From positions 31,992,001 to 32,056,000 of the forward strand of contig OX597842.1 of NCBI GenBank assembly GCA_951406725.2: a stretch of DNA of 64,000 nucleotides, read 5' to 3'. The notes below the pieces were generated by a model that did no database searches, was not told the DNA's origin, and saw nothing but the letters and a program-made list of their open reading frames with translations. The translations under genes were made by a program, and so were the position numbers. This document shows, in pieces, positions 31,628 to 50,614 of this stretch (position 1 is the first letter of the stretch; every line of letters begins with the position of its first letter). The DNA is from Octopus vulgaris (Eukaryota).

Positions 31628-31663
<36 letters not shown>

Positions 31664-31666
<3 letters not shown>

Positions 31667-32221
31667 TGCCCTGATGCAGTACCAGGCAGTGGCTCTCGTG
31701 GCTTCTGATCTTAAATGATCGGAAGTGTTATCATGTACATTGTTTTGTCTTGGTATAAAAGATGGGCTACAGCAAATATTCTGCTCAATACCACAGATTT
31801 GCTTGTCAGTTGTTTGACCTTAACCAGTTGAGCATGTCCCTCAGTGGCTGACGATATGTGCATCTCTGATCACGAGCAGAAGTAGTTGGGGAACATCATA
31901 GCCATGTGTTGAGAGGGATTCTTAGAGGTTTGAATAATTCACCTTTGGAAACATGGGTGGTTCTTTCAACATCCTTAAACAACCCTTATTCAAGGACCTT
32001 TTGAGTGGGATGTGTTACTTGACCAGAAGAAAATTCTAACTGGGCGCCACCTGCAAGGTCATGTGCTGTTTATCTTGATATGAGATCACCATGTCGCGCA
32101 CATATGGTTGTGATGCATGTGCCTGGTGTACCCTTATCAGACGGGTAGTCATGATGGGTATACTGGGCTTCGTATATTTTACCCCAGTGTCACTTTGATG
32201 GCATGAACTGCTCTCTCACTC

Positions 32222-32225
<4 letters not shown>
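31664..32225 (+). mobile_element. ~560-bp non-coding dispersed element embedded in (TAA)n
   Basis: AAATGCCCTGATGCAGTACC...CTGCTCTCTCACTC-(AAT)n. A partial copy lies at 32291-32460 and a full reverse-complement copy at 50025-50580. Orientation is inferred. Confidence 0.8.
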
Positions 32226-32257
<32 letters not shown>

Positions 32258-36434: not shown

Positions 36435-37360
36435 AGGCGCAGGTGTGGTTGAGTGGTAAGAAGCTTGTTTACCAACTACATGGTTCTGGGTTCAGTCCCA
36501 CTCCATTGCATCTTGGGCAAGTATCTTCTGCTATAGTCTCGGGATGACTAAAGCCTTGTGAGTGGATTTGACAGATGGAAACTGAAAGAAGCCTGTCATA
36601 TATAGGTGTGTGTGTGTGTCTGTGTTTCTGTGTGTGTGTCTTTGTGTCTTTGTTTGCGCCCACCCCACCACATCATGGCATAGTGGTTAGTGTAGCGGAC
36701 TCGCAGTCGAGGGATCGTGGGTGTTTATGAGCGAAAACACCTAAGCTCCACGCGGCTCCGGCAGAAGGCAATGGCGAAACTTCTGCTGACTCTTTCGCCA
36801 CAACTTTCTCTCACTCTTTCCTCCTGCATCTTGCAGCTCACCTGCGACGGACCGGCGTCCCGTCCAGGTGGGAAACCTATACGCCAAAGAAACCAGGAAA
36901 CCGGCCCCAACTTTCTCTCACTCTTTCCTCCTGCATCTTGCAGCTCATCTGCGACGGACCGGCGTCCCGTCCAGGTGGGAAACCTATACGCCAAAGAAAC
37001 CAGGAAACCGGCCCCAACTTTCTCTCACTCTTTCCTCCTGCATCTTGCAGCTCACCTGTGACGGACCGGCGTCCCGTCCAGGTGGATAACCTATACGCCA
37101 AAGAAACCAGGAAACCGGCCCTTATGAGCCAGGCGTGGCTCGAGAAGGAACAAACAAATCAACAAACCCCGCATCATTACTTGACAACCGGTGTTGGTGT
37201 GTTTACATCTCTGTAACTCAGTTCAGCAAAAAAAAAAGACCCCTAGAATAGGGACCAAACATAATTAAAATAAATATTGGGGGGGATTGATTCAACTGAA
37301 ATTTCATCAAGCTGTTGCCCCAGCATGGCCGCAGTCTAAGGACTGAGACAAGTAATAGAA
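36435..37360 (+). mobile_element. OR-like SINE interrupted by a second SINE (36673-37157)
   Basis: The head GGCGCAGGTGTGGTTGAGTGGTAAG is at 36436; the body resumes at ~37175 (CTTGACAACCGGTGTTGGTGTG...CCCAGCATGGCCGCAG). Confidence 0.8.
36673..37157 (+). mobile_element. V-domain-like tRNA SINE with a triplicated 107-bp segment
   Basis: tRNA-like head with the B-box deleted; CCTGCGACGGACCGGCGTCCCGTCCAGG resembles the V-SINE core. Units start at 36801, 36908 and 37015. A related reverse copy lies at 59555-59855. Confidence 0.75.
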
Positions 37361-37588
37361 GAAAAAAAAACGTGCTACCATCTTCAAGTGATGTCCTTCA
37401 TTTCCAGTCTTCCGTGAAAACATGTCTGGCCATGGGGTGATATTTATTACCTCCCTTGGAAACGTAAGGGTTGGTTACAGGAAAGGCAACCAGCTGCAGA
37501 AAATCTGCCTCAACAAACTGTATCTCGAAAAGTGGACGTTAACCCTTTTGTCACCATATTTCTGTGAAGATGCTCTGTGTTTCTTTCA

Positions 37589-37843
37589 TCATCATCATCG
37601 TTTAACGTTTGCTTTCCATGCTAGCATGGGTTGGACGGTTCGACCGGGGATCTGGGAAGCCAGGAGGCTGCACCAGGCTCCAGTCTGATCTGGCAGTGTT
37701 TCTACAGCTGGATGCCCTTCCTAACGCCAAACACTCCGTGAGTGTAGTGGGTGCTTTTTACGTTTCAGGCGAGGCTGGCAACAGCCACGATCGGATTGGT
37801 GTTTTTTATGTGTCACCGGCATGGAAGCCAGTCAATGCGGCAC
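37589..37843 (-). mobile_element. 5'-truncated family A SINE (3' half of a chimeric insertion)
   Basis: (CAT)n tail at 37589; SINE homology ends at 37843, where the tRNA terminator starts. Confidence 0.88.
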
Positions 37844-37854
37844 AAAAAATTATC

Positions 37855-37973
37855 TGTCAGAAGTGGGATTCGAACCCACGCCCACATTATTGGACCAGGA
37901 TACTCAATGTTCTGGTTAAGGTACCATTTATGCACCTTGAGTCTAGTGCCTTAGACCGCTCGGCCATCCAGAT
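37855..37973 (-). tRNA. tRNA-Leu-CAA: Intron-containing tRNA-Leu(CAA), probable pseudogene (retrocopy)
   Basis: Minus strand reads (AT)CTGGATGGCCGAGCGGTCTAAGGCACTAGACT-CAA-G-[35-nt intron 37901-37935]-TCCTGGTCCAATAATGTGGGCGTGGGTTCGAATCCCACTTCTGACA, then GATAATTTTTT. A and B boxes are intact; the acceptor and anticodon stems have mismatches. Confidence 0.9.
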
Positions 37974-40713
37974 TAATTTTAAATATAACAAAAGAATTTA
38001 GTAAAATAACTTAGTTATCATTCAGCTAGTATTAGGAACATTAAATTACGACTAAGGTTTGGTGGGAGATTTTAATTCAGAACTTATGAAGACAAGGTAT
38101 TTGTACTACAGAGCCAGAGGTGGTTTCAGCCAGGTTCGTATCAAAAGGGTTAAGAATTGTTTCTCTATTATATATTTTAACCCTTTTGTCACCATATTTC
38201 TGTTGAGATGTTCTGTGTTTCTTTCAATTAATTTTAAATATAACAAAGAATTTAGTAAAATAACTTAGTTATCATTCAGCTAGTGTTAGGAACATAAATT
38301 GTGACTAAGGTTTGGTGGAAGATTTTAATTCAGGACTTATGAAAAACAAGACGTTTGTATTACAGAGCCAGAGGTGGTTTCAGCCAGGTTGGTATCAAAA
38401 GGGTTAAGAATTGTTTCTCTATTATATATTTTAACCCTTTTGTTACCATATTTCTGTTGAGATGTTCTGTGTTTCTTTCAATTAATTTTAAATATAACAA
38501 AGAATTTAGTAAAATAAGTTAGTTATCATTAAGCTAGTGTTAGGAACATAAATTGTGACTAAGGTTTGGTGGAAGATTTTAATTCAGGACTTTTGAAAAA
38601 CAAGACGTTTGTATTACAGAGCCAGAGGTGGTTTCAGCCAGGCTGGTATCAAAAGGGTTAAGAATTGTTTCTCTATTATATATTTTAACCCTTTTGTTAC
38701 CATATTTCTGTTGAGATGTTCTGTGTTTCTTTCAATTAATTTTAAATATAACAAAGAATTTAGTAAAATAAGTTAGTTATCATTAAGCTAGTGTTAGGAA
38801 CATAAATTGTGACTAAGGTTTGGGGGAAGATTTTAATTCAAAACTTATGAAAACAAGACATTTGTACTACAGAGCCAGAGGTGGTTTCAGCCAGGTTGGT
38901 ATTGAAAGGGTTAAGAATTGTTTCTCTATTATATATTTTAACCCTTTTTTTTTTTAGCATATTTCTGTTGAGATGTTCTGTGTTTCTTTCAATTAATTTT
39001 AAATATAACAAAGAATTTAGTCAAATAACTTAGTTATCATTAAGGTAGTGTTAGGAACATAAATTGTGACTAAGGTTTGGTGGAAGATTTTAATTCAAAA
39101 CTTATGAAAACAAGACATTTGTACTACAGAGCCAGAGCTGGTTTCAACAGGGTTGGTATCAAAAGGGTTAAGAATTGTTTCTCTATTATATATTTTAACC
39201 CTTTTGTTACCGTATTTCTGTTGAGATGTTCTGTGTTTCTTTCAATTAATTTTAATTATAACAAAGAATTTAGTAAAATAACATAGTTATCATTAAGCTA
39301 GTGTTAGGAACATAAATTGTGACTAAGGTTTGGTGGAAGATTTTAATTCAGGACTTATGAAAAACAAGACGTTTGTATTACAGAGCCAGAGGTGGTTTCA
39401 GCCAGGTTGGTATCAAAAGGGTTAAGAATTGTTTCTCTATTATATATTTTAACCCTTTTGTTACCCTATTTCTGTTGAGATGTTCTGTGTTTCTTTCAAT
39501 TAATTTTAAATATAACAAAGAATTTAGTCAAATAACTTAGTTATCATTAAGGTAGTGTTAGGAACATAAATTGTGACTAAGGTTTGGTGGAAGATTTTAA
39601 TTCAAAACTTATGAAAACAAGACATTTGTACTACAGAGCCAGAGCTGGTTTCAACAGGGTTGGTATCAAAAGGGTTAAGAATTGTTTCTCTATTATATAT
39701 TTTAACCCTTTTGTTACCCTATTTCTGTTGAGATGCTCTGTGTTTCTTTCAATTAATTTTAATTATAACAAAGAATTTAGTAAAATAACTTAGTTATCAT
39801 TCAGCTAGTGTTAGGAACATAAATTGTGACTAAGGTTTGGTGGAAGATTTTAATTCAAAACTTATGAAAACAAGTCAATTGTACTCAGAGCTGTTACAGG
39901 GTATACTGCTGTACTACTACAACTACTACTACTTCTACTACTACTGCTGCTGTTGTTATTGTTAAGCAACAAGACGGTTAAGGATGATGGTCTAGGGCTT
40001 AGGGTCAGGAGACCCCAGACCTTGGAAAAAAAAACTTTGGTCGAGGGCTCTTCGTTGACGCCCGACACCACTGGGAGGTGGCCCCTCGAAGTCGCTAGAA
40101 ATGGAGATCTCCAGGTCCAAATTCTTGAACGGCTGCTGCTGCTACTGTAAAATCAAATTATGCAATTAATCAAAGTGAAATTTATTAATTACTATACCTG
40201 GGTAAGTACAGTGAAGACTAATATTTAATGCCACTTACCCAGTTTTTCTTCGGCCCCTTGTAAAAAACAACTAACAAAGGTTGGGGTAGGATTTGAACTC
40301 CAACCCTTTGAAACTCTCACCAGCAACGATTACCCAAACAGACCCACGAATTGGAGGATTGTTACCCAAGTGGTGCAAAGGGGTCATCGCCAAAAGGGCC
40401 ATAGGTGCAGCAACACACTGTTACAGTGCATGCCCTCATAGTGCTACTATGACTAATTAATTCAATTAATTAATTAATCAAATCGTTCATTACTATACCT
40501 GGGTAAATACAGTGAAGACTATATATTTAATGCTTTTGTTCTTTTATTTGTTTCAGTCATTTGACTGTGGCCATGCTGGAGCACTGCCTTTAGCTGAACA
40601 AATCGACCCCAGAAGTTAGTCTTTGTAAGCTTAGTACTTAAGCTATCGGTCTCTTTTGCTGAAGTGCTAAGTTACGGGGATGTAAACACACCAGCATTGT
40701 TGTCAAGTAATAT

Positions 40714-49720: not shown

Positions 49721-50024
49721 TTATTATCAAAAAAAAAAAAGAAGTAATATAAAAGGAGAAAGGGGCTCTCGACCCCTTTTTGACCAGGCTCCTGTGGTTT
49801 TTATGGGTTTTTTCCATGAGTAACCTATCGAAGTGCCTCCCCCTATTGAGAGTTTTACTTGTTATATATATTTTCGTTGTTATTTAAATGTTTACGTGGA
49901 CCTTTCTATCGGACAAAACCCTTTGTAATTTTCGTCCTGTGTTTGTCCTTACATGTTTCTTTAATTTTTGTTAGCCCTTGTGGCCAATAAACCAGAATTT
50001 ATTATTATTATTATTATTATTATT

Positions 50025-50579
50025 GAGTGAGAGAGCAGTTCATGCCATCAAAGTGACACTTGGGTAAAATATACGAAGCCCAATATACCCATCATGACTA
50101 CCCGTCTGATAAAGGTACACCAGGCACATGCATCACAACCATATGTGCGCGACATGGTGATCTCATATCAAGATAAACAGCACATGACCTTGCAGGTGGG
50201 GCCCAGTTAGAATTTTTTTCAAGTTGAGTAGCCCATCCCGCTCAAAAGGTCCCTGAATAAGGGTTGTTTAAGGATGTTGAAAGAACCACCCATGTTTCCA
50301 GAGGTGAACTATTCAAACCCCAAAGAATCCCTCTCAACACATGGCCATGATGCTCTCCCACTACTTCTGCTCGTGATCAGAGATACACATATCGTCAGCC
50401 ACTAAGGGACATGCTCAACTGGTTAAGGTCAAACAACTGACAAGCAAATCTGTGGTATTGAGCAGAATATTTGCTGTAGCCCATCTTTTATACCAAGACA
50501 AAACAATGTACATGATAACACTTCCAATCAGTTAAGATCAGAAGCCATGAGAGCCACTGCCTGGTACTGCATCAGGGCA

Positions 50580-50580
<1 letters not shown>
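50025..50580 (-). mobile_element. Reverse copy of the 560-bp (TAA)n-embedded element
   Basis: Reverse complement of 31664-32225, flanked by (TTA)n on both sides. Confidence 0.85.

Positions 50581-50614
<34 letters not shown>

Follow-up and report, generated by a model that had tools for sequence, protein, structure and literature searches.

The window analysed here is a stretch of 64,000 nt on one contig of the Octopus vulgaris genome (G000:C29:31992001-32056000; genome of 2.8 Gb in 227 contigs). Between 37539 and 39891 it carries an array of seven complete units and one partial unit of a MITE, with a period of about 254 bp. All seven complete units have TTAA flanks and terminal inverted repeats (TIRs) starting with CCC, as found in piggyBac-type MITEs, and the same 23-nt spacer occurs in 7/7, which indicates that the array was made by tandem duplication. 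Unit 1 is interrupted after 37588 and resumes at 37972, while the six other complete units are uninterrupted across this site. The left part of unit 1 (37539–37588, plus strand), with TTAA and the left TIR, is 94% identical to bases 1-50 of unit 2, and its final 3 nt overlap the tail repeat of the LINE piece described below. The right part (37972–38153, plus strand), with a TIR and TTAA at its end, is 92% identical to bases 51-231 of unit 2. The six complete and one partial uninterrupted units follow at 38177–39891 on the plus strand, again with a period of about 254 bp.

The first-pass annotation had described a MITE cut precisely by a 383-bp insert, with uninterrupted sister copies. Both points hold, all six complete sister units presenting the exact empty site; the sisters cannot, however, be counted as separate insertions, being tandem duplicates with an identical spacer. 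No target base is lost or duplicated at the insertion. In the contigs of four public runs the MITE is found in its uninterrupted form, and none of the pieces in the filtered list spans the insert junctions. No RNA run appears among the public runs listed as containing the sequence. The interrupted unit is the most diverged of the array (90-94%, against 93-99% among the other units). Elsewhere in the window there are about three head-to-tail copies of a unit of about 110 bp within another repeat (36780-37120), a long minisatellite of 52-bp period starting at 1135, and an inverted pair of 614 nt (31632-32245 and 50001-50614; 95% identity, 17.8 kb apart).

The insert (37589–37971) has its sense on the minus strand, on which it reads tRNA-Leu(CAA) from position 3, a 35-nt intron, exon 2, a 5-nt trailer, T6, 255 nt of a partner element and (ATG)n. 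Exon 1 (37936–37971, minus strand, as are all parts of the insert) contains the anticodon CAA at 37937–37939 and an intact A box, and shows the changes A4T, G26A and C28T. The intron (37901–37935) lies at the canonical position 37/38. Exon 2 (37855–37900) has an intact B box (37866–37876) and no CCA, and shows T39C and a change of one variable-arm base. It is followed by the trailer (37850–37854), identical to that of a parent-type gene at G000:C29:5.437 Mb, and by T6 (37844–37849), the Pol III terminator, which represents the 3' oligo-U end of the precursor and marks the junction; the parent-type gene has T8. The partner (37589–37843) is the 5'-truncated 3' UTR of a LINE of the endonuclease/RT type, with best copies 95-96% identical, and ends in the (ATG)n tail (37589–37598). 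This tail runs on into 3 nt of the target, a likely priming overlap, so that the microhomology between tail and target noted earlier is present, at 37586–37588.

A tRNA was called at 37973-37855 by Rfam, with 31 bits against a cut-off of 29, and ARAGORN without intron search called no tRNA genes in the window. The earlier description of the tRNA part, about 2 nt short at its 5' end, with the intron, trailer and T6 in place and both boxes intact, is read directly from the sequence: G1 is missing, and T2 as well unless target base 37972 supplies it. The stems are not those of a functional tRNA, G1 being absent and A4T, T39C and the variable-arm change breaking pairs; three of the five private substitutions thus disrupt stem pairs. 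G26A is not claimed as a footprint of m2,2G, because the site is a CpG.

The intron variant of the insert is found at five exact-pattern places and in two diverged copies in the genome. The only one of these without a partner and with an ordinary terminator is the gene at C29:5.437 Mb, which differs from the insert at two intron positions, where the insert agrees with three siblings. No partner-free gene carrying exactly the insert's intron allele was found by genome search, this nearest one being two intron positions off. It is therefore likely that the parent was either an earlier form of the C29:5.437 Mb gene or a paralogue missing from the assembly. Between insert and parent-type gene 0 nt are common upstream and 11 nt downstream, the latter being the trailer and T-tract; the claim that no genomic flank of the parent came along was put to this check and survived it, no homology extending past the transcript. 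The tRNA part has five private substitutions in 128 nt (3.9%; 95% range 1.3-9.1%), or about 4%, and the LINE part differs by 4-5% from its best copies. On a published scale on which a JC distance of 0.065 corresponds to 18 My (PMC13282606), the insert would be roughly 11 My old (3.5-25).

The partner had been taken for a SINE, and in this respect the annotation has to be corrected, as copies of the partner extend upstream into an RT frame and no SINE-like head recurs. All 40 tail copies compared are variably 5'-truncated, the LINE part ranging from 124 to 829+ nt. In place of one fixed small-RNA head without coding sequence upstream, 36 heads were seen, and the only recurring ones are tRNAs, in chimeras with different junctions. 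Among 20 loci fetched via the sequence upstream of a sister copy in the window, several enter coding sequence, three of them for more than 1.4 kb. Three long LINE copies share about 2.4-3.1 kb at 92-94% identity, and all copies seen are broken. The frame upstream of the partner contains an RT domain (PF00078, E 1.7e-29), and matches to endonuclease domains are weak, both below gathering (PF03372, E 0.0067; PF14529, E 0.0036). One frame with RT and weak endonuclease, together with a short tandem-repeat tail, would fit the architecture of the RTE clade, and the LINE is one that we take to be RTE-like from its motifs and architecture. Homolog and atlas searches with the LINE protein returned only 'RT' and no clade name. 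The octopus family RTE-2_OV is described (PMC9115989) as having a 3' UTR that is mostly microsatellite, and it is therefore probably another family than the partner.

The arrangement corresponds to that of the U6/LINE chimeras. The small RNA lies 5' of the LINE 3' end and in the same sense; the junction is at a natural oligo-U end, with the trailer and T6 matching the parent-type gene; both parts are enclosed by one empty site, without target duplication; and the genomic flank of the source gene is absent. The insert is a single unit in an otherwise intact target. The best reading, with a probability of roughly 0.75, is that of a chimeric retrocopy, in which a pre-tRNA-Leu(CAA) and a LINE 3' UTR entered the MITE as one unit, probably through a jump of the LINE RT to the precursor's oligo-U end. 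The proposal that a LINE RT captured a nuclear precursor tRNA is in this way upheld as an interpretation, a single retrotransposition of the U6/LINE kind having joined both parts at the Pol III T-tract, and capture before splicing and 3' trimming agrees with the presence of intron, trailer and T6 and with the lack of CCA.

In such an event, target-primed reverse transcription would start on the (ATG)n tail via the 3-nt overlap. After 255 nt the RT would leave the LINE RNA and engage the free 3' end of the pre-tRNA without microhomology; copying of the precursor would stop 1-2 nt short of its 5' end, and a blunt join of the cDNA would follow. All seven other LINE copies (7/7) have ..CCA before the first partner base, and microhomology between T-tract and partner is therefore absent at the junction. 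Such a copy would be a dead end: transcription by Pol III would terminate at T6 and leave out the LINE part.

The insert had been presented as exceptional, which it is not. A genome-wide check for other tRNA-T(n)-partner junctions, by an exact pattern of B box, T-tract and partner, gave 148 junctions, and reversed-pattern controls gave none; the insert is thus one of at least 148. SINE starts account for 27 of these, the insert's LINE UTR for five, and a short 3' module for 116. Loci were fetched for all 27 SINE-start junctions and for 37 of the 116 short-module junctions (100 of the 116 listed), and contain tRNA bodies of many isotypes, some of them 5'-truncated. With relaxed settings ARAGORN called tRNAs in 17/27 and 33/37 of these loci, including some miscalls. 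Such fusions number well over a hundred in this genome.

Judging by its motifs, the short module is presumably the 3' UTR of another LINE, this one CR1-like. Of one exact variant there are 1675 copies, and four of the first 30 are headed by U6 or a tRNA that ends in a T-tract. The module is about 60 nt long, and roughly two thirds of the 30 copies sampled (L182-L211) break off at nearly the same place, immediately 5' of a hairpin. Truncation there is also frequent in SINE-A copies, and the place may be a strong stop for RT or a site of RNA cleavage. Among the 30 best matches to U6, a partner was assigned in 18 by script (five of them library exemplars) and in 22 by eye. In the best explanation as a whole, held with the same confidence as for the insert, events of this kind took place hundreds of times in the genome, drew on two or more LINE systems and captured both tRNA precursors and U6.

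A census of tRNA-Leu(CAA) yielded 56 copies, of which one artefact was dropped, leaving 55. With a partner defined as a library match within 30 nt, and two further library matches discounted as only (TA)n, a true partner is present in 29 of 31 dispersed copies and in 0 of 24 gene-like copies; in random windows a match to a partner family begins in 18 of 400. The gene-like copies include three isolated ones whose label depended in part on the absence of a partner; if these are counted as dispersed, the comparison becomes 29/34 against 0/21 clustered copies. Similar distributions, scored partly by eye, are seen for tRNA-His(GTG) (22/30 dispersed against 0/24 clustered examined, of 30) and tRNA-Leu(TAA) (10/13 dispersed against 0/31 clustered). 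For the three families together, a partner is found in 61/77 dispersed and 0/76 clustered copies. For tRNA-Ala, ten copies were found and no clear gene. Targeting of tRNA terminators by the partner was considered and ruled out, none of the 76 clustered genes having been struck.

The class is of RNA origin. This follows from five spliced copies that keep the trailer, from homology that ends at the transcript ends, and from an excess of changes at A58. Where the 5' end of a dispersed Leu-CAA copy is intact (24 copies), it shares 0-8 nt of upstream sequence with the nearest gene; downstream, the identity of dispersed copies to the nearest gene stops after 0-18 nt. Seven further dispersed copies are 5'-truncated. 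Among the genes, 19/24 have upstream identity of 47-200 nt. Five precisely spliced copies retain trailer, T-tract and partner. The 19-nt spliced-junction pattern alone is at about chance level (six matches, control five), and five of the six matches were confirmed as tRNAs by their flanks. DNA duplication cannot produce spliced copies with a trailer, and they indicate that splicing can precede 3' trimming.

Position A58 is the usual m1A site of tRNA. It is changed in 3/5 spliced against 1/26 unspliced Leu-CAA copies (Fisher p 0.008), compared with a non-CpG background of about 4% and 0/24 genes. Genome-wide, the junction pattern with A58 changed has 12 matches, against 116 with A58 intact; the 12 comprise nine clear tRNAs (six of them A>T), two tRNA-like sequences and one SINE head. 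The pattern with T55 changed gave five matches genome-wide and no tRNAs. The pattern with T54 changed gave 20 matches, which by eye are 13 SINE interiors, five tRNAs presumably with native A54, one unclear case and one clear case. In view of the RT errors that m1A58 causes (PMC11417395), the A58 excess would be a footprint of m1A58, on small numbers and two control positions. In the tRNA of the insert A58 is intact, which fits an early precursor.

The manner in which the two RNAs were joined may be judged from the ends involved. Primary Pol III RNAs end in 3'-OH and start with 5'-triphosphate, and the oligo-U ends of pre-tRNAs are likewise 3'-OH. Of the 29 Leu-CAA partners, 12 are SINEs beginning at their own primary 5' end, and at one locus (L263, G000:C10:12.177 Mb) the T6 of a pre-tRNA-Leu(TAA) runs directly into the first 32 nt or so of U6. 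The insert's own LINE part is internally truncated. The 3'-OH pre-tRNA ends, the primary 5' ends of the SINEs and the 5' end of U6 at L263 fit end-to-end jumping, and the capture of precursors with 3'-OH favours template jumping of the RT over ligation by RtcB. A non-LTR RT, the R2 enzyme, makes end-to-end jumps with 0-2 base pairs in vitro (PMC8594491), and the jump reading for the partner LINE, which borrows this property from the R2 enzyme by analogy, would fit. L263 is itself a chimera of two small RNAs in which no LINE part was seen.

It is unlikely, if conceivable, that ligation of the RtcB type came first, a cleaved LINE RNA with 5'-OH being joined to the 3' end of the pre-tRNA and the fused RNA then retrotransposed. 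A ligation of this kind has been shown for human U6/L1 (PMC6789731), and it would agree with a junction that is blunt, at the T-tract and free of microhomology. Pre-tRNAs are, moreover, RtcB substrates during splicing, and the CR1-type partner is cut near one fixed point in most of 30 copies, possibly an RNA cleavage site. However, according to the same source purified RtcB requires a cyclic phosphate and a 5'-OH, and U6 with 3'-OH was a poor substrate; the 3'-OH of pre-tRNA oligo-U ends given above, the partners that start at a SINE primary 5' end or at the 5' end of U6, and two chimeras whose junction falls within the tRNA, with no T-tract (T46, T48), all stand against ligation, and template jumping remains preferred.

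That the two parts arrived in two steps, a solo pre-tRNA retrocopy entering the MITE and the LINE later inserting exactly at its T-tract, is very unlikely. Solo copies do exist (2/31, one with a duplicated flank). In 27 chimeras the matches between outer flanks are above chance (permutation p 0.00015, or 0.0011 minus one microsatellite case), and the inner matches that two steps would lead one to expect are also slightly above chance (p 0.02), so that the support for the class from target duplications is modest. Two steps would, however, predict many solo copies and struck T-tracts in genes, and the two most strongly opposing observations are the few solo copies and the untouched terminators of the 76 clustered genes. 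The tRNA part (about 4%) and LINE part (4-5%) of the insert are also equally decayed, and at three other loci (T04, T30, T49) one older repeat is cleanly split by a chimeric unit.

A DNA-level duplication of a tRNA gene already backed by the LINE, or an assembly artefact, is hardly credible. The contig of the insert does carry both the parent-type gene and a second chimera of Leu-CAA with the same LINE, and no independent read was seen to bridge the junctions. Yet homology stops at the transcript ends, the second chimera differs in T-tract length and LINE breakpoint, the five private substitutions are found in no other copy, and the spliced and A58-marked siblings require RNA. Amplification of the chimera together with its MITE was ruled out, the junction being present once.

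The first-pass annotation had also seen in the insert a snapshot of the birth of a SINE, and here the case is weak, T6 lying between promoter and LINE part, the stems being broken and the junction being single-copy. That the insert is a nascent tRNA-headed SINE master has a negligible probability: it has intact A and B boxes and the LINE 3' end needed for mobilisation, and such switches are a proposed origin of SINEs (PMC4476161, PMC5786205), but T6 at 37844-37849 would block a Pol III run to the 3' tail, a genome-wide pattern search for dispersed copies with the insert's junction found only the one, and among its siblings the T-tract length, the parent allele and the partner vary, as would follow from independent events.

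The chimeric retrocopies may be compared with several known systems. U6 chimeras are known with L1, with L2 and Mon-1 in platypus, and with RTEX and AnolisSINE2 in Anolis (PMC4476161, PMC6789731), that is with L1, L2, RTE-like LINEs and SINEs (PMC4476161). The octopus chimeras resemble them in that the oligo-U end of a sense Pol III RNA meets a SINE or a 5'-truncated LINE, and in the insertion as one unit, with a target duplication that is small or absent with stringent LINEs. They differ in what was captured, a short-lived tRNA precursor (with intron, trailer and 3'-OH, without CCA) instead of mature U6 with a cyclic phosphate, and in that they occur in an invertebrate and involve many isotypes. 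The human tRNA/LINE-1 chimeras (10.1101/2025.02.02.635956) likewise unite a tRNA and a LINE 3' part in one insertion. In contrast, those reported from 21 loci are mostly antisense tRNA halves, explained by twin priming, while the octopus chimeras contain almost complete precursors in sense orientation, with the junction at the terminator, and are found at no fewer than 148 exact-pattern places. Tailless retropseudogenes and pre-tRNA retropseudogenes produced by L1 (Schmitz et al. 2004 via PMC4476161 and PMC2912911; PMC5322556) are also retrocopies of tRNA precursors, which suggests capture in the nucleus, but they are primed directly on the tRNA and have no LINE part, in contrast to the 29/31 dispersed Leu-CAA copies with a partner. 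Finally, tRNA-headed SINEs attributed to template switching onto RTE-derived sequence (PMC5786205, PMC7245038) share the tRNA head and RTE-like 3' end, but form amplified, uniform families, whereas the insert is single-copy and has a terminator within it. A literature search covering few subscription papers found no sense, trailer-bearing pre-tRNA/LINE chimeras reported as a class, none in molluscs, and no m1A58 footprint in retrocopies; comparable cases may be contained in the supplements of 10.1101/2025.02.02.635956 or in Schmitz et al. 2004.

The single insert is an ordinary dead retrocopy, and the interest of the class is moderate. It extends capture of the U6/LINE type to short-lived tRNA precursors with 3'-OH ends, and the question of jumping or ligation becomes testable on hundreds of natural junctions. 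Trailer-bearing spliced copies, together with the excess of A58 changes, suggest that genomic DNA may disclose both the processing state of an RNA and the modification of a base, and the fusions are likely a DNA record of tRNA processing, and not the birth of a new mobile element. Most dispersed 'tRNA genes' here are retrocopies (61/77 in the three families), which affects tRNA gene counts, and for the textbook account of how SINEs originate the chimeras offer a pool that can be measured.

A more general statement, to which somewhat better than even odds may be given, is that in this genome LINE RTs routinely jump onto nuclear Pol III precursors and leave hundreds to thousands of dated DNA fossils of processing intermediates, 'routinely' meaning about one in eight recent insertions for one CR1-type 3' module (4/30 sampled). 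If this is true, the germline would have left fossils of precursors that are unspliced with leader, spliced but not 3'-trimmed, or marked by m1A58, and the order of processing would be given, with splicing and m1A58 before trailer removal. There would also be a record of formerly active tRNA genes, a standing pool for new SINEs whenever a short T-tract leaks and, possibly, capture near the source gene for intron-containing precursors.

As regards the last point, 10 of the 31 dispersed Leu-CAA copies are on the contig of the parent, where 0.99 are expected (label permutation, p 0.008). Four Leu-CAA chimeras lie less than 1 Mb from parent-type genes (G000:C29:5.62, 5.69, 8.66 and 9.61 Mb), against 0.02 expected. 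Such a same-contig bias would speak for capture at the site of insertion. It was not replicated, by eye, in intronless His (2/22, where no parent could be assigned to the most frequent trailer) or Leu-TAA (0-1/10), and is therefore given little weight; local capture near the parent gene was rejected as a general rule, being strong in Leu-CAA and absent or weak in the other two.

Several individual loci may be mentioned. A pseudogene of a tRNA cluster, without an anticodon loop and with part of the intron lost, has chimeric retrocopies (L045, L050, L053:730-835, L139, L180), and this defective gene was therefore likely transcribed in the germline. Long-trailer chimeras that extend past a first short T-run (L251 at G000:C18:52.86 Mb, L071 and L076) record Pol III read-through. 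At L177 (G000:C24:7.11 Mb) a 3' piece of tRNA-Glu is preceded by its own reverse complement, as would result from snap-back or twin priming.
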